Both the position numbers and the translations under genes were made by a program. Shown here piece after piece: positions 10,301-43,117 of a stretch of 43,121 nt of DNA. This DNA comes from Sphaeroforma arctica JP610 (lineage: Eukaryota), in contig NW_014040429.1 of assembly GCF_001186125.1 (NCBI RefSeq), positions 71,714 to 114,834 of the forward strand. The letters are read 5' to 3'. The stretch's first letter is position 1. Each line of letters starts with the position of its first letter. The notes under the pieces are model-generated. The model saw only the letters and a program-made list of their open reading frames with translations, ran no database searches and was not told the origin of the DNA.

Positions 10301-13300
10301 GCTGGTGAGTATTCTCTCCTTTGTGAAGGACGCTCATTTTCGATAGCCTATTGTGTAGACTAGCTGCTGTTTTGTGCACGTGCAACCCGTTGGTGATGAA
10401 TTCTGACAATCATTGTACATATACATATCATTCTGGCCACGTCGCAACACTTCGCTACGTCTACCACACAGCCCGCTCTTTCCCCTTGCACGTGGGATAC
10501 AGCATTCAACTTTATAAGAGCCATATCCTCTGAGAGAACTTTCAATACATTTCCCAACCCCCAAATAACGAAATTTCGCTACTTACAGCATGCTAGTTTA
10601 AATGTGCGAAATCAACGGCGCCGTCATCATTTCACTATTGAACTCCCATGGAGCGCTGATCGCGCAATTCAGCAGTTGGGACGTACTCATAGGTCTCACC
10701 AGGTGCGTATGTACCAGTGTGGCTTCTCCGTCTCATGAGATTTTTTTTCGCCCCCAGTAAAGGCAAGTGGTATACTTGCCTGCTCACTTCGTCAGTGTAT
10801 TCGTTTCTAAATTATCCACAGGCTCGAGCATAATGACACTCGAAGATTATATTTAATGATTTTCTTCATGACTGGAAACTATGAGACTGTATAGTCCCTA
10901 ACATATACTTGCCATACCGCGTATCGGTATTTATATATCTTGTCACTGACACCCATATTTCAATTTCGGCTCGCAGAAAACGGGACCCATCTACAAGCTT
11001 GTTGTGTGCTCACTCGCCGGAGAATTACGCTGTGTGATGGCTGTGTGCTCGCGGTTGCAGAGTCTGGGAGCGCTCACGCGTGGAGATAGGCGGGCTAGTG
11101 TTGGTTTCAATTTCGACGATTACGATATAGATAATAAGTACGGGAAGAAGGTAGGGGTTTTCTTTTGCAGAAGCGGTCTTTTGGCGGAATTGGAGTTTCA
11201 GGAGCTAAACTACGATTAATAGATATATCTGTTCAAAATCTATTCGCTTGTGAACCCCGATTCGTAATTTTTTTTCTCCTCCTTCGTTCTACCATATTTA
11301 CAGGCGTTAAAGGACATGTCCCATTCTATACGACAACGCACACCCTATCCTGGCGTGGATAGTGAGACGATTTCAGCACTCGAGCAACAAGCGCAAAAGA
11401 TTGCTCAAGGCAGCGCAGACCAGGCTTTAGGGAAGCCAATACTCTTTACAGTCTTGGCTGCGTGCATAGGTACGTTCGTTGATAGCAGTCTAATTGTCTT
11501 CCACGGTTCTCAAATGACGCACCACTTAATTCCATCCGATCAGTGAGTGTATGCTGCGGGTTATGGACAGGCTGCAATGAAGTGACAAACTGAAGTAGAT
11601 TATGCTAACTTCGAGCTAACTCTGTACACATACGCGTATCATATTATTCGCACCGCTTTTTACTCAATTTTAGATTTAATGGCGTTTGAGGACGGGGATG
11701 AAGGCAAGGTGGAAAACATCAGGTCCTTCTGGAATCGCTTACTGGGTCTCACAGTTGCCCAACAGGGCATATTGTTTGGGTGTGTGTTTGAGTTGAAGAT
11801 TAGTACATAGGTTTGAATGTTGTAATACGTTATTCAATCTCACAGCGAATATACTTGTCCTTGCTACACAAGCCCCTTAAGTACAGCCTGATTTAGTCGC
11901 AATATATGTACAATTGCTTAATTTTTTTTTACACATTCATATTGAATACAGATATCTTTCTGCTGTACTGAAAGCAGTTGTGAACGAAGCCAAACGCGAT
12001 GGTACCTATTTAGATAATGTGTTGGATCTGAAAGGAGAGGATATCATGATACAATCTAAGGAAATTTTGAGTCGAGTATGTCTGTTCTTAAAAATATTGC
12101 ATGCTCACGTTATATGCGGTATTCTGTTCTTTTTTAACACGCTGCGTCGTGCTTCCCTTTCTGAATTGGTTTTGATGGGTTTCTAGAATATTCAGGTCTC
12201 TGCTAAGTATACCCATATTCTTAGACCACCATTTATGAATCATGCACGGACATTTATACACACCAATGCAGGATCCATCCACAGACGTGCCAACGATTCA
12301 CTACCAGGTACTGGTCAATAGAGGTGTATCCTTTCCAGTGGCATCCTATCGGTTGGAGCAAGCACAAGCAGCGTTCTCGTAAGTTGTTCTGCTTTCACGT
12401 AGGTTAAAACGAAAGTGTCATGAAAAAGATATCTGCTTGCACATTCGTTCATTAGAGTGGCAAGGGTGCATAAACCTCTGCTAATTTTGTGCACCTTATA
12501 TGATAGGCTGACCTTCTTGTATATTCGATCAATAGATTCGCAGCCGCATGCAGGCAATTGGCTACATAGGGTTTGAATCACTTTCTCATGTTCGTGGAGG
12601 TTCTCCCTGAGGTTGTTGATTTCAGACTCTTCTTTACCACCCATACCGCAGTGGAAGAGCTGCTCAAACCGATGGTGATACGGACAGTACAGCAGATAAG
12701 ATTGATGAAGATGAAAGCGGTGAGAATGTCAAGAAAGGCGTGGACAACGACAGGGGAGAAACCATGCAAACAAACACCGTCCAAATCACTGATCCCGCAG
12801 AGGAGGTCGAACAACCCCCGAACAGTATGTGGATTTGTATTTTCTTAATCCATTGTGAATTCTACTCTATAGTGAATTTGTGTTACGTTTTCTATCAACA
12901 CCTGTAACATATTCTGACCACTGAAACATTGTTGATTTCGTTCTTGACCTCTGCAGCTGACTCGTCGCTTTATCTGTATATTGGATTAGTGTTTGCAACG
13001 GCCTCCTATATTGTCTGTAAATTAGAATAATACATACATCTGTACATTCTATATCTGAATAGTGATGATATGTTACGCGTCTGTTGCTTGCTTTTCCAAT
13101 TTCACTGCAGGCGATTTTGTCTAATTTAAATTTCACTCGTATGCTAACAGCTGACGCGTCTGAGCCGCCAGACATTGAACCAGGTGTGCTCCCTGTTAGT
13201 GTACCAGCGATGGACAAGGACAATACAACTTCTGAAACAATGCCAGCAAACACCGATGTCAACTCTGTACGCAGTACAGCCACTTCGCCAAGGAATGGGG

Positions 13301-15295
13301 GGTACGTGCCCGCCGAGACCTCAGATCCCGTGAAATCGCCTGCACGTCTGGTGGAGGACGAAATAGATGGCGAAGGCAACGAAGGTGAAGCCAGGAATGC
13401 TAACAGTGGTTCGGATGGTTCGGATGGTTCTGATGTAGACAGCAAACCCGACGACAAAGACAGCGATTCCGAATCGGACGCGACCGTGGATTCCGACGAT
13501 GGAGGGGAAGAAAACGAGACATATGTCGATTATTCTGGATTTTTTATCTCCAAAGTGCCTCACTTTGGTAGGTATATGCTCTTATTGGCCACGGGAAAGG
13601 CTGGAAATCCATTCTACGTGAATATATATCGACCGAATACCGGAAAGGGTGTTGACATCGCTGTAGACACGCTTTTGGTAGGTCCTTGTTTCAGTCTCTT
13701 CGCTCTTTAGCACTTAGCTGTGTGATGTACGTGCCTTTGATTAATGCACACTATAGCACGTGCCTCAGTCGACGCAAGATAGTTGCTGATAAAGTCAACT
13801 ATGGGGACATATCGAATGATGCTCATTTCGCATACTTGTTCACATCTTTCACGTAGCAACGGTACAAACTAGTCAAACCGGAGGAAATGGAGCAGCAGTG
13901 GACCGAATTCTATGATGCCACTAAAGATCATTGCACACACAAAAGTACGTGTCGTTGCTCCTCTGGGAAGCGCACGGTACTACACCACATTATCAATGGA
14001 AATATTGTGCAGCAGTGGTCCACCATACAAGGGTACGTTACGTTTGTGCGTGTTCATATGCGCTGCGGTTTGCCTGCGCGGACTCGTGATGACAACGGCG
14101 ATGAATCGTCGTGTGCGCATGTATGACGGTCCGAGACCTTTTTGGATTGTATTCTGTGCACGATTCAAGTCATGTTGTATTGACCACAATAGGAGAGCTT
14201 GATTGAATTCTTTTCAACTATGATTGTATCACTTCTTTGCATTTACAGCATCACGCAACGGTTCAAATCGACTCAAGCGGCCGGCAAAAATAATATGCAG
14301 ATTGTTCGGTTGGAAACCAGTACCGGGGAACGATTAGTGGGTATCTCTCTGAACGAGCAATGTATATTTGAATTGTCTATGCATCTCCGGGAGAGGGAGC
14401 ACGTACTGGCCACTACGCATACGAGAGCGAATATGACGATTGAGCCTGTTGGTACCCTAAAAATTAAACAATTACAGCGCGCAATGGTATGTTATCTGTG
14501 TGACCCGCAGCTTTTAAACAATTCTCAGTACACTGACGGAATATTTCTTTTTGTACAAGTCAATTGCATGTTGTCATTTTTAAGCATCTTGAGTACCTGA
14601 TAGCACAAACCACGGATTGTTGACGCAATCACATGTTCAATCAATTGTTCGCAGACCAAGCCTCGAGACATCACCACCTACTTCGGAGCAGCTTCTGCAG
14701 TATCTAAGCAGGAGCCGAAGGTTGAACATGAAGCTTCTCTAGGTAGAATGGCTCCCTTAAGCGAAAACTCGCAGAAAAGAAATGCTGACAATATTGAAAC
14801 GACCATCCGCGCAAAGATAAAGCCAATTGTACATTCTAAAAAGCGTAAAGTCACCTCCTCGAAAAAGTCATCGTCAAATCCGAGCTTGTTGTCTTTATTC
14901 AACAAACAAAGGTATGCAAGCTGTAGGTATTCATACTATATTGTAAATTGAATTGTAACACAGCATAGTGGGTTTTGAATGTACAAACGAAGATTTTTCC
15001 TTCCATACTGACCACTGACTGTGACACTGCCTCTAGTGTGTACGCGGTATCCTCCAATCTCACGATTGCCGTATCTCGCATTGGGTAGATATCTCTGGTT
15101 AGAATAGATGAATACCTCATTTGATTTCTAATTTGCGCTTTTGTATTGAATACTTATCATATTATCTGAAGGAGCAAGAAGCCCGGTGTTGTCAATAGTG
15201 GAAATGCGCCAGCCGCACCCAGTTCGCGTCATGCGAATCCGACTTCCCCTGCTGCCGGTCCTAAGGAAGAACCGACATATATCACACTCGACTGA
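4388..15295 (+). CDS. SBNO: Strawberry notch homolog (SBNO/FORGETTER family SF2 helicase-like protein), about 21 exons
   Basis: Exons read by hand: 4388-5507, 7157-7408, 7702-7961, 8214-8381, 8558-8782, 9045-9203, 9429-9626, 9767-9986, 10144-10304, 10589-10702, 10977-11150, 11304-11469, 11674-11779, 11952-12075, 12272-12378, 12652-12824, 13151-13677, 13857-14032, 14249-14486, 14655-14911, 15172-15295. All are GT-AG and phase-compatible. Family motifs: [31 protein letters not shown] (Walker A), FDESHKAKN (DExH), [99 protein letters not shown]. Confidence 0.93.
5612..6745. repeat. (AT)n/(GT)n microsatellites flanking the assembly gap 5665-6510 in SBNO intron 1
   Basis: Dinucleotide runs lie on both sides of the N run. 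Confidence 0.9.
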
Positions 15296-18200: not shown

Positions 18201-18495
18201 ACTTGGTATTCTGCAGAATATAAAGCAGTGTGCTATCATATTTGTTTAACTAAAAAACCGCCTATCAACCGGGCCTCAATCTTGGGGCAGGGGCAACTTA
18301 ATTAAATGCGGTAATTACCCAATCCTTATTTTATCATTCGAGACGGATTATCACCACACTTCTGAGCAATTGTTGTTTTCACACCATGTCCATTGCACCA
18401 TCACTTCACGAATTACTGATATGCACGTATTAGAGTGTAGGTCGGTTTTGAGGTTGGTAGAATATACGATTATAGTGTACTAAAGCACTATAGAG

Positions 18496-18673
<178 letters not shown>

Positions 18674-19333
18674 NNNNNNNNNNNNNNNNNNNNNNNNNNN
18701 NNNNNNNNNNNNNNNNNNNNNNNNNNNNNNNNNNNNNNNNNNNNNNNNNNNNNNNNNNNNNNNNNNNNNNNNNNNNNNNNNNNNNNNNNNNNNNNNNNNN
18801 NNNNNNNNNNNNNNNNNNNNNNNNNNNNNNNNNNNNNNNNNNNNNNNNNNNNNNNNNNNNNNNNNNNNNNNNNNNNNNNNNNNNNNNNNNNNNNNNNNNN
18901 NNNNNNNNNNNNNNNNNNNNNNNNNNNNNNNNNNNNNNNNNNNNNNNNNNNNNNNNNNNNNNNNNNNNNNNNNNNNNNNNNNNNNNNNNNNNNNNNNNNN
19001 NNNNNNNNNNNNNNNNNNNNNNNNNNNNNNNNNNNNNNNNNNNNNNNNNNNNNNNNNNNNNNNNNNNNNNNNNNNNNNNNNNNNNNNNNNNNNNNNNNNN
19101 NNNNNNNNNNNNNNNNNNNNNNNNNNNNNNNNNNNNNNNNNNNNNNNNNNNNNNNNNNNNNNNNNNNNNNNNNNNNNNNNNNNNNNNNNNNNNNNNNNNN
19201 NNNNNNNNNNNNNNNNNNNNNNNNNNNNNNNNNNNNNNNNNNNNNNNNNNNNNNNNNNNNNNNNNNNNNNNNNNNNNNNNNNNNNNNNNNNNNNNNNNNN
19301 NNNNNNNNNNNNNNNNNNNNNNNNNNNNNNNNN

Positions 19334-22300
19334 AGTAGGCGAGATAGAGCGTGTTTCATCCGGCCGCATAGCTGCTAAAAGAACACGTGTAGATATTCCG
19401 GAGTATGTACGCTCGCTCGAGACCCCATCAGACAATGATAGTGCGCCTCATAGTAACTATACACACTCAGAGAGTACCACCATCGTCACAATCAGCGCAA
19501 ACAAAACCGGTCGCATCAATACAATAGGAAATATCCCGCAGGAGTTCGGCTGGAGCCGATTTTTTAGAAAGGCACTACCCAATACACAACTACGTGCACA
19601 CAGCACTGGATTTGCAACACACACAAAAACACACCCACACAGCTGGAGTTGCATGTCACAAATCGTGTTGAAAGCTACCAATACGAATTGCAAATATAGT
19701 GCATCCTGCGAATCCGGATGAATTGCTGAATGATGTTGCTACAGCTAGGTACTACAAACAAGGCGACCGTAGATTAGAGTAAGTTCCTAGGTAGACGAGT
19801 ACTACATAGCGTCGTTGATATATATAATGTAGCTCCTAAAAACTCTTTGCAGAAGAGGATAACTAGAACCATACTCATGAAGAGACTAAGTAGGAAAGAA
19901 ATTGATACTCTGAAGAAGTGTTGCAAACTAACTTTATCCGGCTCGTCGCGTGATGTAGGCTACGTGGACTACAAAACGATGGATCTTGGTATCAGCTTGG
20001 AGGTAGTTAAGCGCAGCAAGACTAGGTTTAACAACTCAAATCTGGAAGCTGCAATCAAGTTCATACTTTCAGATGAAAACGTCTGTTCAATATCTTGGGG
20101 CACTAAATTCTTGAGAATATGATACGAGGAGCTTGTAATCTTGCCGGCATTAACACGGCGGAAACCTATGCAGATTATTTACAAGGGTTATGTCGTATCT
20201 GTTGATGAAGACGACCAAATTGGAACAACAAGCTTCATGAAAGTGGTTTTCTCTAATGCGAATAACGATGAAAAGTTTATCAATGTTGTCGTATATGTCA
20301 CAGGTTGTCTCGTTAGGGTCGTAGTAGTACAATGCAGACTATACTTGAAAACTTCGCTGAGGACCAAACAGAACGAACACTGCTCTCCATGTTGGATCTA
20401 GGCAAGGCCTTCATTAAGCAAAAACCAGATCATTATGTAATCCTTGACGACGCAGTAAACACTCGAGGGCTAGAATATGCGCTTTTAAAGCCTGTAAAAT
20501 AAATGTACCTGTTGAAGTTGAAGAGTGTATCGGGTGTAAATTCGTGCCCTGGGTGGTGTCACAAGTGAAAGAAACAGTGAGACGGAGTGCCTATGGTGGG
20601 GCCGATGTACAACAGGATGCTCTAGAAGTACTTGAGGTATGACGAGATAAATTAGAGATATATTATGGGCATCCTATCAGAGTCAAGAATCAGCAACAAC
20701 ATTATGACAAAGTCCTGAAAGCCATGTCCGATCGCTGCATAGCCAATAAAGGGAGCACATAACAATTCACATCAATTGATTGGAAATTGGAGTTCGACCC
20801 TATATCAACTAGAGAGACCCACTCACGAACACTATGGACAACGTGGTGTGGGATGGCACGGATGTATGTCCATGTACATCGAGTACATAGAATGGGATGA
20901 GGAAAATGAAGACGGGCAGTTGGTTAAAAAGAAGGCGGCAGTGCGGCACATCGTGTATGGTGGTCAAATATTAGAAGGTGAGAATAAGCAGGACACATCC
21001 TGCGTATATCCAATAATAGAAGCATACCTTTTTGCAATCAAAGAACGTCTGCCGCCCATGACAACAACTGTTCTTGCCTCGGATAATGCTGAAAGTTACA
21101 AATCCAATGAGTTAGTAGGAATCGGAATATTAAACCTTACTAGTCCAATACAGATTGCAAGATACATGCATACTGAGACATAAGATGACAAAAGGCCTGA
21201 TAGACGCTCATTTCGCACGGGCGGTGGTCATGTTAATAGCTTTATGAAATTCCCGAGGCGTAACAGGATAAAAGAATAACGACATCAAAAGGTCTAACAA
21301 CGACATTGGCCTAGAAACGGGGTATACCGAGCTCCTTTGTACAATTAATCACGGTCGATCGAAAGGGACGGTTACATGAGTTCTTAGAACGAACCAAAAA
21401 GATAGTAGATGCGGCTGCGAATATTTTTTACGCGAGCTAATGATGTAACCTTCGAAGGTATTGATTGTGCATTGGAAGAATATGATAAATTAGACCTCGA
21501 GAAGATTCTTGGGAGTGACACGGTGATGTATCTGCGTACATACGCCTATTCTAAAATTAATACAGGTGTGCTCTACCGAGTTGACTTCGGTGATGAAGCA
21601 TTTACTATAGTCAATAAGTCGGAGAATGTCGAAGTTTGTGGTGAAAGTGTGGGTGACGGCGTAATTAGTGTGAGAGATCGGAAAATGATAGTGAGGCACC
21701 ACACCATGTACAGGAGCCTGATGGGCCAGATTATGTGCTCGAGGCTGGTGAGATAGCTCAGGAATCAAATGAATTGAATCCGGAGTTAGAGCTCAAAAAT
21801 GAAGTCGCAGTTGAGCTCCATGTCGACCACGTCAAGAGCCTGAACATGAGTATGAGACTGTTGCCGCCACAGAGCTCATCGAATTTGGACCTGGGGACCC
21901 TGATAGGGGGGAAGAAGATTATCTAATGTATATGTATTAAGCAATCAAAGTTTGGTGTTATCTTAGGTCCGCGCGACCATCTACGTGATTAACGCCAGAA
22001 AGAGATATACAAAGTTCGATCCGCAAATACTCTCATCTCCTCCCTTGCTGTGGCTGTACGAAACGGAAGTGAGGCTTTTGCTGTGATTGATCTTGCTAAT
22101 GACTTGCACCCTAAGAAATTCGCACAAGGATGGGCGAGACGTAGGCCTCGTGGCCAGCAATACGGCGAATCATACATGAAACATCTTGTAAGGGCGTGGC
22201 TGACGCTTCGTTTTAAATACAGCTGGGAACTATGCTGGCACAACTGAAATTGATGTACCCTGGACGCTATTCTCTTCCAGGTGAAATGGATATAAGGACA

Positions 22301-22690
22301 CAAATATCAACGATGACACAAGCGACAAAATGGGCCGATGCCAAGAGAAGCTAGAGGTAGAAGCGGTTGAAAGGGAGGTCTTAGCAAGAGCTCAGGCAGT
22401 ATCTAGAGGCGAAGAGTACGTTCTTGTCAACTCCAAGAAGCCTAAAGCGACTGAGCCCTTCCCTAAGAAATATCGAAGTGACTTGCAGCAGATGGTCTCC
22501 GACGATATCACGATTAAGTGGCAAGCGGTATTACCTAATTTGAAAGCTATGTATGCTAAAGAGAATAGAAGTTTGCCTGAGGACTTTCAGTAGACACAGG
22601 AATCAAGTCTAAGCTTATATATGGCAAGACTAAGGCAAAAAAGTTGGATCTCTGGGCAAAGTTATTACCCAGAACTGTTGTTGGTGAACG
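19334..22690 (+). pseudogene. Fragmented large DDE-type transposase, resembling Sola3
   Basis: Collinear + strand fragments broken by stops and frameshifts: ISWGTK...LPALTRRK; IDW(K)...RE...HYGQRGVGWHG; NKQD..CV..IIEA.L..IKE.LP......SDNAESY; YMHTET*D.K.LIDAHF; FAQGWARRRPRGQQYG. From memory these match the DWAMK..RE.Q..FGKRG.SWH / SDNA..Y / E...GK..CD pattern of Sola3-type transposases. The superfamily was not verified by a search. Confidence 0.6.
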
Positions 22691-23373
22691 AATTGAATCA
22701 ATACATGTGCTTATAGATTAACATATATCATCCAAACCTCTTTATGGATAATTTACACTTTATTAGTTCGTTCAACGCTATAAATTGCAAATTCTAGGGT
22801 AGAAGCACTCTAAATACCATTATGCGGAATTTCCATCTCATGGCCATTTAATGCACCATTGGCCATAACCCTCATTAATACAGCTTCCGCCACCATAAGG
22901 ATGATCATGCACACTATTTATATGCTATAAATAAGTTTATGACCCTTAAAACACTACATTACTGCCATTCGAAGTACGATAATCGTATATTGCCGGTAGC
23001 AATACATAGTGAAGTATTGGTGCTATGGCCTAGCTTCAAAAACAATTATTGCTCAGAACTACTTGCTTAAAACATATGGAGTGATAAAACAAGGTTTTAC
23101 TTAATACCGTTTTTAAACAAGAACCTGCTATTCCAAGCTTTTGGACCCTAAGGCCCGGTTGATAGGCGATTTTTAGTTAAAACAACGCAATTTTGCGTAA
23201 CAAAGATACAGTAATGTGTCGTACAAAATTGAAAGCCGGATAGCTGAAATCAATCAAATTTCACCGACATGCTTTTAGCAACGATACTACGAGTTTTGAC
23301 CGAGTTCACCTTGGGCGTGATAACTAGAATGATACTTGTGTAGAAGCACAATTTCTAGGTGGCCTAGAACTAT

Positions 23374-23690: not shown

Positions 23691-26600
23691 AATGAATTAT
23701 AAGATGGGCTCGTCTGTTTCTGAAAATCCTAATATTGAATCAATTATTTTCGTCTCATTTTTTTTCCAGTAGGAATAAATCGACAAGTATAGGCATACTG
23801 TAAAACTGTACATTTGTCCATAACTTGTCTATCCATGTGACTGTAGCGTACCTAGCTATAAGTCGCGATATAAAAGCTTAGTGACGTGCAAAGGAAATCA
23901 CCTTTTACTTTATGTATGCGATTAACGGCTTCACAGCATTTTATAGTATCCATCGGAATGTGCTATGACTACAGGACTAAAATATGCCACGAAGCCTTAA
24001 AAGCGGTCGAATACAGGGACAAAGATGCACCAATGAAATATTTCCCTGTGGACTGTGTGCTTCCAACAGCACTACATGTGAAGTATTTCCTGCACTCGTC
24101 TGCATGCAGTCTAGCACCACCCTTGATCGCGCTTAAACAATATGAGTGGTTGCACCTGTACAGATGGTAGATACGCACGATGCCTCTGCCCGAATCCCCG
24201 GTCTGGCGTTTATTGATAATAGCTACAAATTGCATTAGATATTGTAGGCGATGGTGGAGTGGATTTTGATTTATTTTATCGGCTTTCGATCCAGCCAATG
24301 TCTCTCAAAAACGCCACTCGCTTAAATGCGTCAAATTGAGGGCTGCCACCCTTTTCGCTAAGATTTCAACGCCTTTTCGACGATTTTATTGGTGCCCTCG
24401 GACACACTTTATCGAAAAGCTTGGAGGGTAGCCACTCGTATTGATAAAGTGCGCTAAGTTGGCTACAACTCTATTTTGATCATTTTGTTATCGTACGTTG
24501 CCAATATTTGAATATGATTGACTTACGAGCATCGTCTCATTGCCGGAATACCAACTTCGCACCGATCCAGCAAGCCGTCCATATATGGGTGCCTACAATC
24601 GTAAATAAACAAAGCCGATGGGCTTACTAGAGCAGGGTACCCTCCCGTGTCCGTGTGTGACTGAAGGGTGAAGGAAGGTGATACCAAAACATGCACCACC
24701 ACCCCCCTCCCCCCTCACAGCTAAACAAAAACCTTACTTCTATAGCTTTAAGTCTACTTACCTGAGTTTGATGCACACTTATTCTTATGAACACTTCTGT
24801 TCTGCTTTACTTTGCTATAACTACACGAGTCAGGTTACAGCTGCAGGTCGTTTAGTCGAGTGCAAGAATCACGTGGCCTTTAATGTGCTCAGGTGGTAGC
24901 TGGGGTGAAGTCAACAGTAAGCTTTTAGCAACTCTTCTACGTTGGATAGTGTCGCTGAGAAAATCGTGGAGGAATATAAAATGCATCTGTTTCGATGGGG
25001 CACACGGATGTTCGAGAAGTATATAATACTGGAGGATTTCTATAGATTCCGAGTGTCTAACCAGCTGCATAAGAGACTCCATTACATCCACGGGCGTCGT
25101 AAAACAGATGTAATACACTTACTGCGAAAGTCGAAAGATAGAAATACTTCGTCAACCAAAAAATTATTCACTGGTTTCCTATTTTGGCGTATGAGTGGTG
25201 ACAGTGTATTTTTGGATGATGACACAGTGTAAGTTCGCCTTGTTACATTTACAATGCACACTGCGAGACCCGCTCTAACTCGGCGCGCCCGAGGGCCAGG
25301 AGAGGAACAACCATCCTAAACTCCAAGCCGTAGCAAATGGAATACAGAAGTATAGCGCCACTCCCTAACAAGACAGCAACAAGCCATGAACCAACTACTC
25401 CATTCGGCAGACGGGATGTCCACAGGTTGCCATTGCATAATACTATGCTGGCCCGATGATGAAATGTCTACTCACCGCCCGCGCATCCTGTAAAAAGAAA
25501 GAGAAAATGATGGAGTGCCCGACCAGTTCAAAAGTTTCGGGCTATGTGCGGAATAATTTCACGTTGCGGTCTGCTTCCTGTACAAGTGTTTATTCGTCTA
25601 CTAGCGTTTCGGCTAATGCTTTCCGGCCAGGAGCAACCAATGAACGCGTCGAACATGTGAACGCGAGTGAGACAAGGTAACGTAAGTATAATTTTACAAT
25701 TTACTGGCTCGTACCCAAAAAGTGGTAGTGGTGACATTCCCATATGTCTGGATCACACGTAGATGACTGCTTTTTGTTTTTGTTTTTTGGTCAGAGATAC
25801 TGACAGTTTTGTGAGCTGGCCGCCGATAAAGTATGAACTTCGCCGTATACATGTTGAAGTGCAAAATAAATAACAAATAAATTAATATTTGCTTGTTTTT
25901 AGTTCTTTCAATCCATATAATTTGAAAATGAACGTGTATTTAAATTTTTAAATACAGAGAGGAACCAATTTATGTCATTTGGTCCTGATATTTTATAAAT
26001 GGCCAGACGCCGTATTTCTACATAGCCCCAGCAGCTTTTAGAACTACGAACAACCGTGAAAAAACGATCTAGTTTATAAAGTGAAACCCAAAGTAAAACG
26101 GTTTCGGTTATGTCCTACCTAGATAGGTTTGTGCCTGCATGTACGAGTTCAAGACTCACTCTTTTTTCGTTTAGTATTAGGTCCAGTAACCATTTTCGAT
26201 GTAGGCGCCATACTTTTTTTTATGTAAGATTAAGGGCAGGGGTTCTTCTTTATTAGTTGCAAAGTTTGAAGAAGATTCTTTACTTTGTTAAGCAGACCAG
26301 ATAGTTTTGCCACATATGAAGTAGGCGGCAAAGAAGGGATTCCAGATCTATCAGAGTCCGCAGCAACCTGAGGAATTCTCATCCTTTTATCTCATGTATT
26401 TGTATGAAACCACGTATTCCATTTCTTATAAAAGATTCAAAGGAAGTCGCAGGATTCACAAAAGACATGGGATGATACCCATGCTACTGTTCCACTCTTA
26501 AATATGGGGTTTGTAGTAAGTGTGACCGTATTCGGATGTTTTGCCAATAAAATCTTTGACATATGACTCCATAACAGGCACTTCAAAATCAAATGAGAGG

Positions 26601-27859
26601 GCAATTGAGATCTAGGATGTAGGCGTTAGTACCATCTATGTTATTAGCTTCGTAAGTACCACTTTCCTCATCGTGGTAGGAGATAAATAAATAAAATCTT
26701 TAGAACAGAGTTCTGTAACGTTGACGTTTCTGTTACTAGAGATAATGTAATCTTCAACTTAAACTGAACAATGTTCTTTGTATCATTCCAACGGTTTTTA
26801 GGCTTTTAGCAAGATGCGGTTTTTGCGCTTGAGTTAACAGGGGTAAACGAAGTTCTGCATATGAGTAATCTTTTGTCGCCACGGGGTAACGTGTTCCTCC
26901 GGCGCAGCTTTATAAAATGTTGCTTGTAATTTACTATAGCCGTCAAAGAAATAATGAAACGGGAGTGTTCCCGTTTGAAAATTCATGCATTTAATCATTT
27001 GAGTTTGAACCTATTTCAAATGATAAGGCCACATATCCTCATCGTCATATAGGACGGTACCCAAGAGTTTCTTACCTCACTACTGCGTATCTCATTAATA
27101 CCCTGCTTTTGATGTATATAAGGAACACCACGTCTATGGGCCATACCCATAAGTGCCTTCATTACATCGTTACAGAACTCGCTATCATTATCAGAGCATA
27201 GTACTCGGAGAAAATCGAAGTCATTAAAGACTTGATAGCATAACTTTGCAATTGTTTGCCGGCGTTTGCTCGGTATTGCAAAACGCATGTTGTAGCCCGA
27301 AGCCACACATAAGAAATGGTAGATATATACATCGCATTTCACAAATAGCCATCCCATAAGTATTCTCGTAAGCTCGATGAGCAAAGTTGTGAATGATCAT
27401 AACTTTACTTTCATGCTCTTCTAATGAGTATCACTGGTGGGGTGAACCATTTCCACGGTACTTAGGCAACTTCAGTATTAGTAGGAGTTATTTCCTGTGA
27501 TAAATAGTTATTAACGACAGATTGTTAAAAGTATCCTCTTTGGTTGTTTTGCATTTAAAAAGCACTTTAAGTGGTTGAGTGCAAGCTTTAGGGTTCGTAT
27601 AAAAATGAGTCCTACATCCACGGCCATAGCTAGTTTCATGTTTTTACGACCTATTGCCGTTTCCATCGGCACGACCTTGATTTCATTCTTGCTGAGTGCA
27701 TGTGTTGTGCAAGTCTGGAGTTTGTGATCAAACTGCTCAGACACTTTTAGTTTAGCATAGAATTGGGTTGAGCCTTTCCAACTTCATTTAATGATACCTG
27801 CAGGACCGATGCGACAAATATGGCGTGTTTCTATGGTGATCTCTTAATAGATTAGGATC

Positions 27860-28190
27860 CCTTATACAAAAGCGTGCCGGTTTCACGGTCGACATATATA
27901 GGTTTGTCTTGAACCATACCAATAAGCTCACGTATGCAAGGATCGGAGATATGTAAGGGACAGCACAGCGGTATGATAGATTTAGTTATTAACATAATTT
28001 AACAACTGGTATATTAGTTGCCATGATGGGTCTGCCCACAATTGTGTAGAGATTGGTCAAGCTGAAACGCATCACCCTTAGGGTGTGTCGGCGACATGTA
28101 TTCGGGTACTTGTTTATTTTGTTCAGCAGCAAACATATCAATAGTAAATCGACCCCAGCGTGACTCACCGAGCCGGAACCATTTCTTAAT
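27860..28190 (-). pseudogene. Degenerate DNA N6-adenine methyltransferase domain in retrotransposon pol (copy 2)
   Basis: KWFRLGESRWGRFTIDMFAAEQNKQVPEYMSPTHPKGDAFQLDQSLHN / (frameshift) WADPSWQLIYQLLNYV / LCCPLHISDPCIRELIGMVQDKPIYVDRETGTLLYKG. This aligns residue by residue with the domain at 38030-38434. Confidence 0.85.
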
Positions 28191-29100
28191 AAGCAATTGA
28201 CGTTGTGATTTTTTTTTTAAAAGTCAGGAACAAGTCGAAAGAGCATGTCAGAAAGATATTATATATTCCTGGTATGTTTGCTATATTAAAGGCAAACTTA
28301 GCAATTATGTCATGACAGCGACTCCATAACTGTGAATCATGGTTCATGCCTTCGAAGTAAGCTAAATCCTTTTGATCACAGGCGACATTGAAGTATCTTC
28401 CGTTTAGGTAGTCTTTGAACTGAGTAACTAAAACCCTTATTTAACGGTAGGGTAGGGTAGTTACGTTGACTTTGGTTATAGCTCTTACTATAATTGCTTG
28501 TAGTGTGGGTTACCATATACAGTTTGATATAGTACGTCCCTAACCGCTCGATCTGAAGCTTCGGCTGCTGCTTGAAATGGAATGCCGTCTACTGGGTATT
28601 GCATGATCGGTGCATCCATTACTTTAGCGTTATCCGAGAGATACTACCATCGTTATTTGTTGGGAGAAAGAATTCAAAATATGTAAGCTTTCAGGTACAC
28701 TTTTATATTGGTACTTATTGCCTTGCCACGCAAAGAGAAAGTACTTCCTACTTGGTTCGTAAATTGTAATTAATGAAATACAGCTTTCAAATCCATCTTG
28801 GAAAAGATAGGGATAATATTATTTATGTAGTATCTCACTTATTTTAGAAAAGGGAAAAATAAGTTGCGGTTTTAATTTATTAATTGAAAACAGGTCTAAC
28901 ACCACTCTTGTTTCACTGAACGTTCCATCAGATTTATTTTGATATACCGTTAAGAGCGCAAGGTTAACAGAGGTTGTATCGTATTTGATTTGAATTAGAC
29001 CATTTCATTATCCAGTCTTCAATTTGGGTCTTGACTCCATCTTTGTGTCGCCAACTTGCGTAGTTATAAGAAGGATACTTTAACTTAGATTCCTACAGAA

Positions 29101-35391: not shown

Positions 35392-35900
35392 TGTAAGATT
35401 CGGTCTATTAAGGCGATATTAACGCCTTAGAGTAAATATACGCGTGGGTAAATTCTAAGTATCGTGAAATTATCAAAGTAAATAAACGAAATGCGACTTT
35501 TAGTAAAGTTAGGTATGCCTCGTGAAAACAGCAATACTCTGAGGGATTGTGAGGCTGAGACATTGCCTATATATAATCCTCTCAGTACTGTTTCCGCCGA
35601 AGGGATTTTATTTAGTGTTTCGTTGTCGCTCTATTAGAAACTATTGTATGTTTCACTGGGGCGAATCCGAGAGACTCATAAAATCCTATCTTTAGAATAA
35701 AGAAATAAAAAAACAAAAAAACTCTTGACGTCCCTAGTTACTGTCTTAACCAATAACTTGCCACTATCTAGAATTACCGACTTAGCCTTCATCAGAATGG
35801 CACATCTGGTTGGCTTATCGGAGGATCAACTAGGTAACGTTAATAGTCCCTAGAAACCTATATTCGGTTGAACCATCTCGCTACCGAAGTATTCAGATAT
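35392..35900 (-). repeat. 3' LTR
   Basis: tgtaagattcggtc...ctaccgaagtattcagatat is collinear with 42637-43117. It may extend further right, because its partner is cut by the window end. Confidence 0.9.
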
Positions 35901-36046
35901 AAATAAATTTGAAAAGTAAATATAGTTCTATTAATAGAACTAGGCAAACTCTTATGTTTGGTATTTTACTGAGGCCTTTTAATGGCCTTGTCCTAATATC
36001 TGATATGTAAAATGGAAAAGGTTTAATTAATAAAACCATTAAAAAT

Positions 36047-36149
36047 CATTTTAGGAAACTTAAGTTCCTTGTGCTATTAAGAGTACATTTAGGAAGCTTA
36101 AGTTCCTCGTACTATTAAGAGTACATTTAGGAAACTTAAGTTCCTCGTG
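36047..36149. repeat. 38-bp tandem repeat running into the assembly gap
   Basis: Units catttaggaa(a/g)cttaagttcct(c/t)gt(g/a)ctattaagagta start at 36047, 36086 and 36124. Confidence 0.9.
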
Positions 36150-36479
36150 NNNNNNNNNNNNNNNNNNNNNNNNNNNNNNNNNNNNNNNNNNNNNNNNNNN
36201 NNNNNNNNNNNNNNNNNNNNNNNNNNNNNNNNNNNNNNNNNNNNNNNNNNNNNNNNNNNNNNNNNNNNNNNNNNNNNNNNNNNNNNNNNNNNNNNNNNNN
36301 NNNNNNNNNNNNNNNNNNNNNNNNNNNNNNNNNNNNNNNNNNNNNNNNNNNNNNNNNNNNNNNNNNNNNNNNNNNNNNNNNNNNNNNNNNNNNNNNNNNN
36401 NNNNNNNNNNNNNNNNNNNNNNNNNNNNNNNNNNNNNNNNNNNNNNNNNNNNNNNNNNNNNNNNNNNNNNNNNNNNNNN

Positions 36480-37600
36480 AGTATGTATAGCCTCCCTTAT
36501 CCGTTCTCCATATAATGTCTTTAAATTCAGCACGATCAAGAGGGGCATTAGAGTCATGTCTTCTTGCGAGTATAATCTATGTAGTCGGAATACGACTTGT
36601 GCCTATATTAAGCGCACTAGAACCATCGGGGTTATTTACCTCGTACGTTCCACTTTTAGTGTCTATTACAGATATTATATACGGACCTATCCTTTAGATG
36701 TTAACACAGTAGCATCGGAATTACGTTGACTGATGTTAACTCTGTCACCGACCTGATACTCTGCTATCTTCTTGGTAGTGTTCCAACGCTTTTGCCTTTT
36801 TAATGAGGCTATATTGCGTATTTTTCGCAAGCACGGATGTACAACGTTATAGATACGTTGTCCCTTCTCTAACCATGGTAACTCATGGTGATCAGGTTCG
36901 TCCTTGTTAAAGGGGATTTGTAACTCACTATATCTGCCACGAAAATAGTGAGTGGGTGTAGTTCCTGTAACCGGATCAGCACACTCGCTCATCTGTGTTT
37001 GTACTCACGTAAGGTGGAACGGCCAATCATCTGCATCATCCGTTAATGCAGTACTCAAGAAGAACGTAAGTCTTCTATGGCGCGTTTCATTCGCGCCTTG
37101 CGTTTGCGGCTTATATGGCACACCTCTCTTATGGCATATGCCTGATACGAGTACTAGCGATTCCATTACGTCATCGCAGAACTCACTACCGTTATCAGTG
37201 CACAGAATACCTGGCCACCTGTGGTCAGCAAAGACTTGGCAACATGATTCTGCCACGGTCTGCATATTCTTATCCTTAAATGGATAGAGCAAGTTAAACC
37301 GTGACGCCACATCAACGAAATGGCGTACGTAACGGTCGCTTGTGTGCTCGGACGTGGGCAGGTCAACCAGATCAAAAATGACCCTGCGCCATGGAACATC
37401 TTCAGTCACACTCTTAAGCGGGGCGAACCCATAGCGCTTGATCTGATTGAGATCACAGTCTGTACATGACTGATATATTCTGTCAACTAAAGTTGCCAGC
37501 TTAGGGTGCGCGATCCCATTTCGCTTAGCATCTTTAAGTGCATCTACTACGTTCTGGTGCTTCAGCTTATGGTTTTGCGTCAGCCAAGCAAGAATGTTTT
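36480..37600 (-). pseudogene. Retroviral-type DDE integrase with HHCC zinc finger and GPY module
   Basis: HKLKH...CTDC; PWRRVIFDLVDL; VDVASRF; TDNGSEF; PYKPQTQGANE; WPFHL; TGTTP; (R)IGPYII at about 36680. There is an in-frame TGA at 37005-37007, a frameshift at about 36690 and a TAG at 36577-36579. Confidence 0.95.
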
Positions 37601-38029
37601 CATCATTCTGCTCCTCCAGAGTAAAGGTAGGGTGTTGAGAATCCACTTGCGTGGTCTCTAAGTCTGTAGTGTTTCCAGACTCATATACTGCTTTCGCATG
37701 AGCGTCATAAGTGCGCTCAGATACACCTGACTTATTAAATAGTCGCATTATATGTGTATACGCTTCAGGATTGTCTTTCATTATTCCCTTTAGAAATAGG
37801 GGTTGAAAGACCTCGGGCTTGGACTTTATGTTATTAAACAAAGTCCTAGCTAGAGACTGATGCTTCTTAACAGTAGTGTCATTAGTATATTGTATTTCTT
37901 GTGCACAGACTTTAAGTGCTATGTTGCATTTGAACTGCTTAACGTTCAATTGGGCAGAGAGTGGAATCTCTGATTCTTTGACCTTGTTAAGGAAGGTCTC
38001 AGAAGGAGTCCATTTGGTTGTTCCAATGG

Positions 38030-38434
38030 GACCTATACGACATATTATAGTATGTCTCCAGGGCTTCTTCTGGACGGCTCGGGTACCCTGATATAGGAAA
38101 GTGTCTACTTCCCTATCTAAATATATTGGCTCGCATTGTATTATGCTTATTAATTTATTGAGCCATGGATCTTTACTCCGTAACGGGCAACACAACGTGA
38201 TGGTAGCTTTATGTATATGAACATAATTTAATAGCTGGGCAATTAACTGCCATGGTGGATTAGCCCACGCATTATGTTTGGAGAGGTCTATTTGAAAGGC
38301 GTCTCCCAGAGGATGATTAAAAGTCCTGTAATTCGATGTTGTGTATTATGATGTGCAGCAAACATATTTAAGGTATGTGACCCAAATATCTTTTGAGCCA
38401 GTTCAAACCACATGGGATTACATTTCCAGTCATT
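38030..38434 (-). pseudogene. DNA N6-adenine methyltransferase (Dam/DIRS-MT-like) domain within pol
   Basis: Hand translation across a 1-nt frameshift at about 38340 gives NDWKCNPMWFELAQKIFGSHTLNMFAAHHNTQ/TSNYRTFNHPLGDAFQIDLSKHNAWANPPWQLIAQLLNYVHIHKATITLCCPLRSKDPWLNKLISIIQCEPIYL. The catalytic NPPW motif is at 38250-38261. Confidence 0.92.
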
Positions 38435-38459
38435 GGCTAGTAACTCACGTACGGATTTA

Positions 38460-39760
38460 TTAAAGTCCGGTACGAAGCGTGATAACATATCCGGTAAATG
38501 GTTATGTATTCCTGGCAGATGTTTTATATCAAAATGAAACTTTAATATTGTATCATGCCAGCGACTCAGTAATTGCGAGTCGGGTTTCATCTCTTTCATA
38601 TATTGAAGAGATTTCTGATCACACATCAGCGTAAATGCTGTTCCGTATAAGTAATCTCGGAAGTGTGTTAGAGCTGCCACTATGGCTAATAGCTCTTGTT
38701 TGACAGTTGGATAATTCAACTGTGAAGCATTCATTGCTCGACTAAATAATTGTATATATCTAGGTTTGTTATTTATAACCTGATATAATACTCCTCCTAA
38801 GGCCAAGTCTGATGCGTCCGTTGCTATTTCAAACGGCACGCCATCGACTGGTCCTTGTACAACAGGGGCTTGCTGGACTGCGTGTTTGAGCGTTTTAAAT
38901 GCGTCATCACAATCTTTAGTCCACAAGTCTCCTAGTTTGCCTTTAAGACATCTTAAGTGTCCAAAAGGTTTAATGTAATCAGCCAAGTGTGGTACGCCAT
39001 CTGAAAAGAAGTTTACAAACCCACACATGCTGTTAACATCTCTTCCTGTAGTTTGTGTTCGCCAATCTAACAGGCGTTCTACCTTACCTGGGTCGATTTT
39101 AATACCTTCCCCAGATAATATTCGGTAGCCTAAGAGCTGTATTTCGCTCATGGCGAAGTGACATTTCTTCTCGTTAATCTTGAAGTTTTGCTCGTTGAGT
39201 CTCTTAAGGACTCGTCTGACTAATGTGGCGTGTTCGCCCTTAGTTTTAGGGTAGATGACTATGTCATCTATAGACTTGCACGCTTGGCATGTCTGCAAAC
39301 ATTTCCTCCATTACTTGTTGGAAGAATGCTGGTAAAGAGTGTAACCCGAAAGGTGCACCTCTGAACCTGTATTGTTTACCTTTCCCGGTAAAACTAAAGT
39401 ATTTACGATGTGGTTCATATACCTGCATTTGATGGTATCCTTGTGTAAGGTCTATAGTTGTAAATACTGAAGCACCTTCCATCCTTCACAGTAGCTCGTT
39501 AATACGAGGTAAGTGAAAGCTACGAGTCGGCAATAATATATTTATTGGACTCATATCTAAACATATTCTGACTTTCTTAAACGATCCGTCAGAGTTATGA
39601 TGGTCTACGGCTAGCAGTGCCAAGTTAACTGGCGTCTGTTGATAGTTAACTTCTATCACTCCATCTGCTAGCCATTTCTCAACTTGTTCTTTTACCACAG
39701 CCTCGTGTCTCCAGGATACATAGTTCCCTGAGGGACACTTTAACTGTGTAAAGTCCACAT
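38460..39760 (-). pseudogene. Reverse transcriptase and RNase H (Ty3/Gypsy type)
   Basis: RICLDMSPIN; LPRINELL; FTTIDLTQGYHQM; APFGL..LPAFFQ; V(YI)DDIVI broken by a frameshift at about 39270; KKCHF...LLGY; RNase H TDASDLALGGVL, NYPTVKQELLAIV, CDQKSL, NHLPDMLSR. Confidence 0.97.
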
Positions 39761-39959
39761 TGGTTAAGTCAAGGTTGACATATCCGTCGTTAAAACAGAA
39801 TTTTGCCCAATCTGTGATCTTTATCTTTTTATTAACTAGAATCAGATCCATGATTTTGTTCGCAAAGTCAGGTATTAATGCCTTGACTGTGTCTGACGGG
39901 GGCTTATATGGATTCAGACAGTTATCGCCTGACTGATCCTTTAATGGATCTATGTTATT

Positions 39960-40290
39960 TGGTAGACCAGTTACGGTTATACATAGAGTGAGTAAATCGC
40001 TCATTCCGACTATAATGTCGTACTTCTGTGACATCTTAACTATCACAGCTTGAGTATTGATACTCGTATCTTCGGCCAGGGAGATTTTAACATCTGTGGC
40101 GATGGTATCACATGTAGCAGTTTTATCATCAGCTAAAATGAGATGAGTTGTTTATGTTCTTCTTTCGATTTCTTTCATTAATGCAAAGCGATCGGATATA
40201 CATGAAATTTCTGAACCAGGATCAATCAACGCAAGGACTTTATTACCATTGCAATGTACAGGGATTATTACACGCTCATCTAAAGAGTCG
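39960..40290 (-). pseudogene. Retroviral-type aspartic protease
   Basis: ERVIIPVHCNGNKVLALIDPGSEISCIS (40195-40280) and YDIIVGMSDL (about 40010). There is an in-frame TAA at 40152-40154. Confidence 0.9.
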
Positions 40291-40328
40291 TTGTATTGTC
40301 TGTGTAATGATTGTACCTGGTAGTACCG

Positions 40329-42506
40329 TCACTCCAACTTAATGTTGGGCTTTCGGTCACAAGACTTAGTGTGATAACCATTGGTCTTCTCACACTTGTC
40401 ACACTTAGTAAGAAAGTGTGTACAGGTGGATACATGTCTACCATTCCAATAACCGTTAGGAGTTAACTGGTACATGTCATACCCACACTGGGCGTCGGCA
40501 CATGTCTTAATCTCCTTAAATGGAGGTTTCATGTCCTTCGCTCCTGCGCGTGCCCGTTTATTGGGTCGTGTTGTGAAAGTGGATTTGCGAGCATGTGTAT
40601 GTTGGGGTCTCTTGTTTGAGGTCTGCCTCGATACGTACCCGTGATCGGTGAGCTCCCGCGGCTTCTTAACAGCCGCTTTTCCTTTTGATGTTACTCGATG
40701 TGCGGGAAAAAGAGTGGATACAGTATCATAAAACTGTTCCCATGTAAGTCGGGATAGATAAAACTTTGTTTCATGTCTCTTGTCTCGAGCCTCAGTCGCG
40801 TGTTTACGTCGCAACTCGGTGTACAGACTCTCACGGTCGTTATTCCCTATGTTCTTACAGAACACGTGCATAACCAGGAATTCGTACCATCGCTGTGCCT
40901 TGTCCTTTGTTATATTGGGACGTTTCTGGTCAGCGTCTAACTTCAGAATATAACTCTGAATGGGTGTGTTCTCGGCTGGTTCATTTAAAATTGAACTCAG
41001 CCCAGGGCTACGCATATCCTTACTTAACAAGGATGTGACCAACCAACACACAGCTGGCCAGTCACGACAAGTGTCTAGCTCATGCTGGTGTCGCTGCAGG
41101 ATCAGATAACTGGTACCTGTAGGGTCAAATGTCTGCATTAAGGCAGAGATCCATTGCTGGGGAGCGATATCATTCGTCTCCAGCATGACCGTAAACGCAT
41201 TGAGCGTACAGGTTAGCGTGTTGAGGTCATGGTTGTTTATAAACTCGACCTGCTTACTGTTGACATCCCAGTTCGACTTAAGTCAACTGATCTGTCCTTT
41301 GTACTTCTGGTTATCCCTGTGGTCTTGTCCACGTTGAGCCTGAAGTAGCTGATCGATGCGCTTTTGCTTAATCGCAATAATATTCACATAGTATGCTACG
41401 TCATTAGCATGATGCGCAGCATGGGCGACTTCCATTTTATTGGTATAGTCGTCGACCGATTTATTAAGGTCGGTCACCTCGTCATAGTGGAAATCCTCTG
41501 CGGGTTGGTGTAAAGCCGTGCGGTCGAAGCGATTAAACTCGACATCGTTCACACGTCTGCGGGGATGATTAATATCCCTTGGCGTCAGAATAACGTACCC
41601 AGTCTTAACTGGTTTCCGACGATTGTCCTCCCAATTGGGTACAAGTGGAGGAGTATATTTCCTTACCTCTCGGTCTATAATACCTTTGAGAACAGGTGAC
41701 TCACGACCAGGTGTCAGAACAGGCGAATGACTAGCCTGTTCTTCTGGCAGTAATGTCTCGTACGGTATATCGACGCTGTGCATCTCTGGATTATATGACT
41801 CAGGTGTCAAGCTTGAGTCTTTGGGCGTAATTGCCTGTCAACGTTCTGTCCACTTATGTACGGCTTCAGTTATGCCCGGGGAATCATGCTCGCGTAAGCG
41901 CTGTGTATGTTTTCCTGATCTTTCTATTTGATCTACACGCTCGACAGTCAAGTCTTTCATAATAGTAGCTAACTGATTCTTAAGATCAGCGTATTTAGTA
42001 ATTAACTTACTTATGTGCTTCGGCTTAGAAGTCTCGGACGTAGATTCGGTTTTGCTACTTGAGCTTGCCTCTTCTTCTGGTTCCATATTAGGTTCCTTCT
42101 GAGATTTGTCCTTGTCCCCTATAATTGGGGACGCCCTCATAATTTGTGACTTTCCTTTCTGATTTTTGTCAGAAGAATGGGTTGAGGCGTCTTGCGACGT
42201 ATCCCTTGTCTCACTTCTTGGCTTCGTTAATGCAAGCTTTGAAGATGAGGCTATAGTTGGCCCTCGGTCTCTGTCAGAAGGAGTAGTCTTCTTAAGCGGA
42301 GTGGCTACTTCCTTATATGAAGCATTGTCCCTTTGACTATAATTGTCAGAGGCAAGTGCTTTGGCTGCAGTGCGCTTAATTGTATCAGCAGCTGCGTCGG
42401 TTGCTTGCGCAGCAGTAATAGCTGCGGCAGCGTTAGCGACTTCTCTCTCCATTATCTTCTTTTCAGCTCTACGTTTCTTAGAAGGAGTGTTGTTTTTCTT
42501 GGTCAT
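40329..42506 (-). pseudogene. gag-like ORF1 with C-terminal Cys/His knuckles
   Basis: ORFs 41838-42506, 41283-41810 and 40329-41186 share one frame and are separated only by TGA codons. The C-terminus reads CADAQC...GRHVSTC and CDKCEKTNGYHTKSC. Confidence 0.85.
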
Positions 42507-42636
42507 AATCTTAACTTATGACTACTAGCTTGTCTCTTAACAACTAGCTTAGACAAGAGAAAAAATGTTGTGGTAGTTAACTTACCTTTACGTTTAAGTA
42601 GTCTAAGTAATTAATACTTTAGATAACTTTAAAATG

Positions 42637-43117
42637 TGTAAGATTCGGTCTAATAAAGGCGATACTAATGCCTTAGAATAAATAAACGCGTAGGTAAATT
42701 CTATATATCGTGTAAATATCGATATAAATAAACGAAATGAGACGTTTAATAAAATTAGGTTTGCCTCGTTATAACAGCAATACTCTGAGGGATTGTGAGG
42801 CTGAGACATTGCCTATATATAATCCTCTCAGTACTGTTTCCGCCGAAGGGATTTTATTTAGTGTTTTGTTGTCGCTCTATTCTGGGGCGAATCCGATAGA
42901 CTCATAAAATCCTATCTTTAGAAAGAAAAAAAAAATACTCTTAATGTCCTTAGTTATTGTCTTAACCAATAACTTGCCACTTTTCAAGAATTCCCGCCTT
43001 GGCCTTCATCAGACTGGCACATCTGGTTGGCTGATCGGAGGATCAACTAGGTAACGTTAATAGTCCCTAGAAACCTATATTCGGTTGAGCCATCTCGCTA
43101 CCGAAGTATACAGATAT
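42637..43117 (-). repeat. 5' LTR (probably truncated by the window end)
   Basis: tgtaagattcggtc...ctaccgaagtatacagatat is a direct repeat of 35392-35900. Confidence 0.9.

Follow-up and report, generated by a model that had tools for sequence, protein, structure and literature searches.

A Ty3/Gypsy retrotransposon family of Sphaeroforma arctica whose RNase H and integrase flank a Dam-like methyltransferase domain

We analysed 43,121 nucleotides of the Sphaeroforma arctica JP610 genome (NCBI RefSeq assembly GCF_001186125.1, contig NW_014040429.1, positions 71,714 to 114,834 of the forward strand; hereafter the window, in whose own numbering all positions are given), which contain on the minus strand a long terminal repeat (LTR) retrotransposon with a putative methyltransferase in its pol polyprotein. 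We are very confident that the element belongs to a Ty3/Gypsy family in which a Dam-like domain is conserved between RNase H and integrase. An earlier reading of this DNA, made from its letters and open reading frames (hereafter the sequence-only reading), had proposed a Ty3/Gypsy lineage in which a Dam-like domain of the DIRS type follows RNase H and precedes a DDE integrase, and profiles, a reverse transcriptase (RT) tree and fold comparisons all bear this out. Our preferred reading of the function, to which we assign a probability of about 0.45-0.5, is that intact members use the domain to mark their newly made DNA with N6-methyladenine (6mA) while it is still in the particle. The sequence-only reading had also regarded the architecture as new. 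A preprint of May 2026 (Fernandez-Moreno et al., bioRxiv 10.64898/2026.05.21.726589) describes Gypsy elements with Dam-like domains, those of Sphaeroforma among them. The claim is therefore lost on the very ground that the sequence-only reading had named for giving it up, and the architecture as a discovery is already taken.

Organization of the element

Along the minus strand, pol encodes a protease, RT, RNase H, the Dam-like domain, a spacer and an HHCC/DDE integrase, in that order (Table 1). The motif series that the sequence-only reading had picked out after RNase H is present in full on this strand: RNase H ends in NHLPDMLSR (38477-38503), and the domain starts at DW (38431) and runs through NMFAA (38354-38368), a variant of the DxFA motif, GDAF (38295-38306) and NPPW to CRIGP at its end (38028-38042). 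The single-nucleotide frameshift said to split the domain is there too. Two other statements held in part. The integrase, described as complete, has the HHCC, DDE and GPY motifs but is not intact, being interrupted by two stops and a frame change; and the feature placed at 36480..39760 is real, but the element that carries it is larger, spanning 35392 to 43117 or beyond and including a protease and gag that lie upstream. Compared with two intact relatives, pol of this copy has three frame changes and four stops, all located in Table 1.

Judged by its sequence, the RT is Ty3/Gypsy and not DIRS. Ty3 heads the solved structures matched by the RT/RNase H frame (E 1e-34), above caulimovirus-type and retroviral chains, and the C-terminal piece of the RT matches PF00078 (E 2.2e-9). 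The protease region is 43% identical to the PF13650-positive region of P0001, an unbroken relative introduced below. The integrase core matches PF00665 at E 6.2e-7, marginally below the curated cut-off, and the HHCC and D-D-E motifs align with those of five relatives. Two recombinase queries found no tyrosine recombinase match in the element, the best hit (E 0.70) lying elsewhere, and the listed repeats include no terminal inverted pair of at least 30 bases.

The gag-position frame and pol together occupy the minus strand from 42506 down to 36481, and from our reading of the sequence both lie between the direct repeats. The gag-position frame has no Pfam match; the only relatives found were three S. 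arctica proteins, which align at 60-70%. The S. arctica protein P0168 terminates at the same residue as the element's gag stop, which is followed by pol in the same frame and stands in the context UGA CGG, a type II readthrough context in the available portion of PMC13517186. The other stops in this copy are decay. In the 132 bases downstream of the gag stop, no stimulatory RNA structure was seen (z -0.77).

Table 1. Features of the retrotransposon and of a second copy in the window.
Feature	Position	Strand	Remarks
3' LTR	35392..36149	-	outer edge 35392; ends ...TTACA in element sense
Tandem repeats, 38-bp unit	36018..36149	.	inside presumed U3 (unique 3') part of 3' LTR; repeat family D9
Assembly gap (N)	36150..36479	.	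must contain last ~100-120 pol codons; P0001 and P0002 align to residue 1280 at 36481
Integrase, C-terminal part	36481..37004	-	GPY 36679-36690; frame change near 36690; stop 36579
Integrase, zinc finger and core	37005..37571	-	HHCC 37455-37571; D-D-E 37368-37379 / 37188-37199 / 37086-37097; stop 37007
Spacer, methyltransferase to integrase	37572..38027	-	poorly conserved; 20-27% identity among window, P0001 and P0002
Dam-like (PF05869 / PHROG 111) amino-methyltransferase domain	38028..38431	-	NPPW 38250-38261; 1-nt frame change near 38338
RNase H, Ty3/Gypsy type	38477..38923	-	PF17919 E 3e-30; PF17917 E 1.7e-28
Reverse transcriptase	39119..39690 (approximate edges)	-	frame change at YxDD near 39270; stop 39488
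Aspartic protease	40000..40280 (approximate edges)	-	catalytic DPGS 40212-40223; stop 40154
Gag stop, then in-frame pol	40326..40331	-	context UGA CGG
Gag-position frame	40329..42506	-	ATG at 42506; internal stops 41840, 41285; Cys/His-rich end
5' LTR	42637..43117	-	probably cut by window end
Second, more decayed RT-RNase H-methyltransferase-integrase copy	26155..29089	-	sister subfamily, closer to P0001

A Dam-like domain after RNase H

A profile built from 50 DIRS-like relatives, from which the window and its close kin were excluded, scores the two halves of the broken domain at 71.2 and 24.6 bits and the second copy in the window at 37.0 bits; in 20 shuffled versions of the window, no score exceeded 14.2 bits. 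The identity with PF05869 given by the sequence-only reading needs a qualification. Neither of the two broken halves alone has a Pfam Dam match at E<=1, but the unbroken domain of P0002, a second relative, scores 31.4 bits against the PF05869 cut-off of 28.1; the full-length proteins P0001 and P0002 (22.9 and 26.2 bits) stay under it. Among 59 aligned members, 53 match PF05869 and 10 match PF12237 (PCIF1), both at E<=0.05 (best PF12237 E 1.1e-4), and 43 match PHROG 111 at E<=0.01. The structure model of the domain has a mean predicted local distance difference test score (pLDDT) of 92. Its best matches among predicted viral folds are phage N6-adenine DNA methyltransferases (E 2e-8, template modelling (TM) score 0.74), followed by PCIF1-like proteins of giant viruses (E 8e-5). 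A sequence-profile search of solved structures gave four matches at E 0.25-1.3, none of them a methyltransferase. Taken from profiles and the model, the domain is PF05869-like with an amino-methyltransferase fold, and its activity is predicted.

Among the window, P0001 and P0002, the methyltransferase is 63-70% identical, compared with 61-68% for RT, 67-73% for RNase H and 20-27% for the spacer; against protein P0007 of Abeoforma, the values are 48% for the methyltransferase and 46% for RT. In these alignments the domain is thus conserved as strongly as RT and RNase H, unlike the spacer.

The architecture in relatives

This copy is broken inside the domain and has an assembly gap beside it, and no single contig from four sequencing runs crosses the whole element, as might be expected if the arrangement were an accident, with part of a DIRS element nested inside a Gypsy copy or the assembly in error next to the gap. 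We regard such an accident as very improbable. In P0001 (1400 aa) and in P0002 (1376 aa), a single frame runs through RT, RNase H, Dam-like domain and integrase, and in P0001 it takes in the protease as well; the two proteins are 70% and 73% identical to the window over the C-terminal part of the domain. The same order is found in Abeoforma P0007 and in the second, diverged copy in the window, contig cover is continuous over the element in all 30 bins at repeat-level depth in each of the four runs, and there is no tyrosine recombinase match. Two unbroken relatives with the same order, together with a second decayed copy, therefore exclude misassembly, and the intact relatives refute an artefact. 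The second copy reads DPSW at the catalytic motif, where P0001 reads CPPW, so that the sister subfamily is altered there.

A search of 1.84 billion representative proteins with the P0002 domain returned 1725 proteins at E<=0.001, of which the best 150 were examined. Among these 150 and P0001, classified by a domain test of our own and not by curation, 17 of 151 have a methyltransferase followed by an integrase, and 51 have an RT and stop shortly beyond the domain (50 DIRS-like and one Gypsy fragment). The remainder comprises 79 with a methyltransferase only, two Gypsy RNase H fragments and two with an endonuclease. The two last, P0038 and P0059, carry an Exo/endo/phosphatase domain, then the Dam-like domain, RT, RNase H and an integrase zinc finger, with a protease also in P0059; their order differs, the endonuclease lying inside an LTR-type pol, and they may be the Euglena-type chimeras of the preprint (Fernandez-Moreno et al.). 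None of three candidate proteins of near length matched the methyltransferase part, and a metagenome scan with P0002 (25 stretches) gave two loci, both ordinary RT-RNase H-integrase elements without a methyltransferase match. Neither P0001 nor P0002 matches the chromodomain PF00385 at E<=0.1; the window's own pol end lies in the gap.

Phylogenetic placement

In a tree of 63 RTs, 15 Gypsy-type rows stand apart from 48 DIRS-like rows with a Shimodaira-Hasegawa approximate likelihood ratio test (SH-aLRT) value of 100, and the RT of the window falls in a clade of 11 rows (SH-aLRT 98). The same elements form a clade of 16 rows (SH-aLRT 95), including three Abeoforma whisleri proteins, in a tree of 73 methyltransferase domains. 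Both trees come from short searches with neither bootstrap nor outgroup; the RT tree leaves out proteins with fewer than 140 RT residues, the two endonuclease-bearing proteins and a curated Gypsy reference set, and the methyltransferase tree leaves out the 79 methyltransferase-only proteins and the preprint's own sequences. Within these limits, the trees show RT and methyltransferase descending together in this clade and do not indicate a donor. The alternative offered by the sequence-only reading, a DIRS/Gypsy chimera, is not supported as a recent event by this comparison, in which RT and methyltransferase give the same chromodomain-less clade. The nearest named relatives are S. arctica SARC_08637, SARC_04479, SARC_00969 and SARC_09150 and the three A. 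whisleri proteins; SARC_08637 shows 69% identity at the end of the domain; its identity to P0001, which it matches in that part and in the spacer, is 71%. P0005, P0008, P0009, P0010, P0021 and P0083, which lie on contigs of 4-8 kb, also fall in the RT and methyltransferase clade of the Sphaeroforma and Abeoforma elements, and the host range of the lineage may be wider.

Age and abundance of the insertion

This insertion is an old, dead copy of an abundant family, because it combines frame changes and stops with diverged LTRs, repeat-level depth and many different flanks at 35392. Self-comparison of the window places the flanking repeats, in direct orientation as the sequence-only reading had it, at 35392 and 42637. 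They are 86% identical, with gaps, over 511 columns (the 35392 side against 42637-43117), and their Kimura two-parameter divergence is 0.086 over 479 columns. The alignment covers only about 510 bases because the window probably ends inside the 5' LTR and the gap at 36150-36479 hides the inner edge of the 3' LTR, which probably lies at or inside the gap. Contig cover at repeat level persists to 36149, and the LTR is therefore likely to be longer than the aligned part. At 35392, 67, 69 and 73 contigs from three sequencing runs split into unlike flanks (agreement 0.35-0.37), and these varied flanks support the sharp CA end of the repeat there; the opposite end lies beyond the window or is hidden by the gap, and the target-site duplication and polypurine tract fall outside the readable sequence.

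Contigs that keep the frame at the methyltransferase break number 17, 11, 6 and 1 in the four runs. Summed contig depth in run X5 is about 136 on the unique flank and 40,000-640,000 on the element, a signal of abundance and not of copy number. No TGG-type tRNA primer binding site was found after the 5' LTR (42601-42636, minus strand), and the window has no tRNA genes. We rejected a self-priming site, for which the only candidate was an 8-base self-complement at chance level. The first 13 bases after the 5' LTR are shared with a variant in run X16. The element shows no GATC or CpG bias. A short inverted match to the LTR (74%) at 2781-2814, against 35529-35562 and 42775-42808, is perhaps a related solo-LTR remnant or chance.

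Possible functions of the domain

If intact members do methylate their own new DNA, Gag-Pol would be made by readthrough of the UGA CGG gag stop and pol packed into the particle, where a small methyltransferase, without a large target-recognition domain, would be held beside the nucleic acid processed by RNase H and RT and could mark adenines on the RNA:DNA hybrid or the cDNA. In the model of Fernandez-Moreno et al., reverse-transcription intermediates are methylated and the host then takes over maintenance: after integration, the ApT maintenance enzyme AMT1 would copy the mark, and the new insertion would then sit in transcription-permissive chromatin. A mechanism raised by the sequence-only reading, methylation of the element's cDNA to mimic 6mA-marked active chromatin, agrees with this model. 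In these hosts 6mA marks active chromatin. According to the same preprint, DAM-LTR insertions (as LTR elements with Dam-like domains are called there) in S. arctica and A. whisleri are more 6mA-marked and more expressed than other LTRs, and AMT1 is present in 9 of 13 DAM-LTR species.

Several points weigh against this reading. The enrichment of 6mA on DAM-LTRs is correlational and could stem from host AMT1 acting on transcribed copies, and domains from DIRS, DAM-LTR and adintovirus sources produced no rise in 6mA in dam-minus E. coli (Fernandez-Moreno et al.). The element itself has no ApT bias (observed/expected 1.03 in pol and 0.85 in the LTR). P0001, an unbroken 1400-aa pol of a sister subfamily, reads CPPW, not NPPW. 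The closest solved fold is that of an RNA enzyme, CAPAM/PCIF1, which takes ranks 1-6 in Foldseek (E 2.9e-4) and also leads a second structure search (Z 10.7, root-mean-square deviation 3.1, 141 aligned residues, against Z 8.7 for the next row); behind it, in the range Z 8.2-8.7, come rRNA adenine methylases, E. coli Dam (Z 8.4) and T4 Dam (Z 8.2). Finally, DIRS-type domains were judged likely inactive by Iyer et al., in the portion of PMC4738411 available.

Some of these points would fit a non-catalytic module, binding S-adenosylmethionine or adenine or serving as structure beside RNase H, whose role would be to hold the template or position pol while the host writes 6mA, a reading that we consider somewhat unlikely. 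P0001 has an unbroken pol with CPPW and yet is 63-67% identical over the domain, the catalytic asparagine is lost in 2 of 20 Gypsy-type and 5 of 50 DIRS-like rows, and, besides the negative E. coli assay and the judgement of inactivity, template binding or PCIF1 mimicry is what Iyer et al. propose for DIRS domains in the same portion of their paper. However, the asparagine is kept in 18 of 20 Gypsy-type and 45 of 50 DIRS-like rows, the full NPP in 17 of the 20 and the DxFA aspartate in 19 of the 20 (with one gap), and such retention over deep divergence is the pattern of a working site, albeit in a sample that leans towards rows keeping NPPW, since the search query contained that motif.

A role as an RNA N6-adenine methyltransferase like PCIF1/CAPAM is also conceivable, though unlikely: the domain would mark the transcript of the element itself, at a cap-adjacent or internal adenosine, or the element's primer, and the mark would alter RNA stability, packaging or reverse transcription. 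CAPAM heads the solved folds in two different searches, PF12237 is weakly matched by some members, and the available portion of Iyer et al. (PMC4738411) places the DIRS-type domain in the PCIF1 clade. In addition, DIRS elements often carry the domain in hosts whose genomes lack 6mA, and the sole published assay measured DNA alone (Fernandez-Moreno et al.). Phage DNA methyltransferases are nevertheless much closer, both by profile (53 against 10 of 59 members) and among predicted viral folds (E 2e-8 against 8e-5). CAPAM may lead by default, no PF05869 protein having been found among the solved structures; its identity to the domain is just 12-14%, the model is without CAPAM's large extra domain, and in the tree of Fernandez-Moreno et al. 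the eukaryotic domains descend from prokaryotic Dam. A little more doubtful again is the stricter proposal that the retroelement "Dam" is a minimal CAPAM/PCIF1-like RNA methyltransferase and no DNA enzyme, marking in the particle either the element's genomic RNA or the hybrid's RNA strand. If true, this would explain the negative DNA assay, the fixed place beside RNase H and the survival of the domain in DIRS elements where the host genome has no 6mA, and this high-copy, culturable family would be where the function of the DIRS methyltransferase could be settled. The value left in the family is as a test system: P0002 (NPPW) and P0001 (CPPW) are a natural pair for comparing substrates and the need for catalysis.

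Other features of the window

On the plus strand the window contains a spliced MOB1 gene (PF03637) at 500-1510 and a homologue of strawberry notch (PF13872, PF13871) with introns at about 7100-14900. The region 18242-23185 resembles a DNA transposon in decay: its broken frames at 19778-22593, which have no notable Pfam match, are enclosed by a 35-base inverted pair, extended by a longer weak match, with about 4.9 kb between the two arms. An exact 208-base tandem duplication at 1961-2376 is possibly an assembly artefact.

Comparison with known systems

The element shares with DIRS1-like elements, as the available portion of PMC3266345 presents them, a methyltransferase of the same family directly after RNase H, and the series DxFA...N...DAF...NPP[WF]...P...W is common to the DIRS-like and element domains. 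By contrast, DIRS1-like pol ends after the methyltransferase, and these elements have a tyrosine recombinase and inverted terminal repeats, whereas the element described here is flanked by direct LTRs, encodes a protease and a DDE integrase, and has an RT that lies outside the 48 DIRS-like rows. That portion of PMC3266345 called the function of the DIRS methyltransferase domain unknown in 2011.

Phage Dam-like N6-adenine methyltransferases (PF05869, PHROG 111) are linked to the domain by the profile match of an intact relative and by the best predicted-structure matches; they are free-standing enzymes, 14-21% identical, whereas the element's is a putative enzyme within a polyprotein. CAPAM/PCIF1, which forms cap-adjacent m6Am (N6,2'-O-dimethyladenosine) in RNA (PDB 6IRW, 6IRX), is the closest solved fold of the catalytic core, but has about 480 residues and an extra domain, compared with about 140 residues in the element's domain.

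We found no earlier description of a Gypsy element with a Dam-like domain in the available portions of PMC9940879 or PMC9289625, and a literature search gave no paper joining retrotransposon, DAM, methyltransferase and PCIF1 as whole words. Fernandez-Moreno et al. describe non-DIRS LTR elements with Dam-like domains and report at least four transfers of the domain from DIRS-like elements; the main text of the preprint makes no mention of PCIF1/CAPAM, of a CPPW subfamily or of an in-frame gag stop. Their "Ichthyosporean DAM-LTR lineage", from Pirum gemmata, A. whisleri and S. arctica, is without a chromodomain. It shares with our element a Ty3/Gypsy-like organization, a Dam-like domain with the NPP triplet and the absence of a chromodomain match, and two of its three named hosts are those of the element's nearest named relatives. 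No difference is established between the two when compared by the main-text description, which omits the position of the domain. Elements of this kind are thus already on record and so, most probably, is the lineage in this host.

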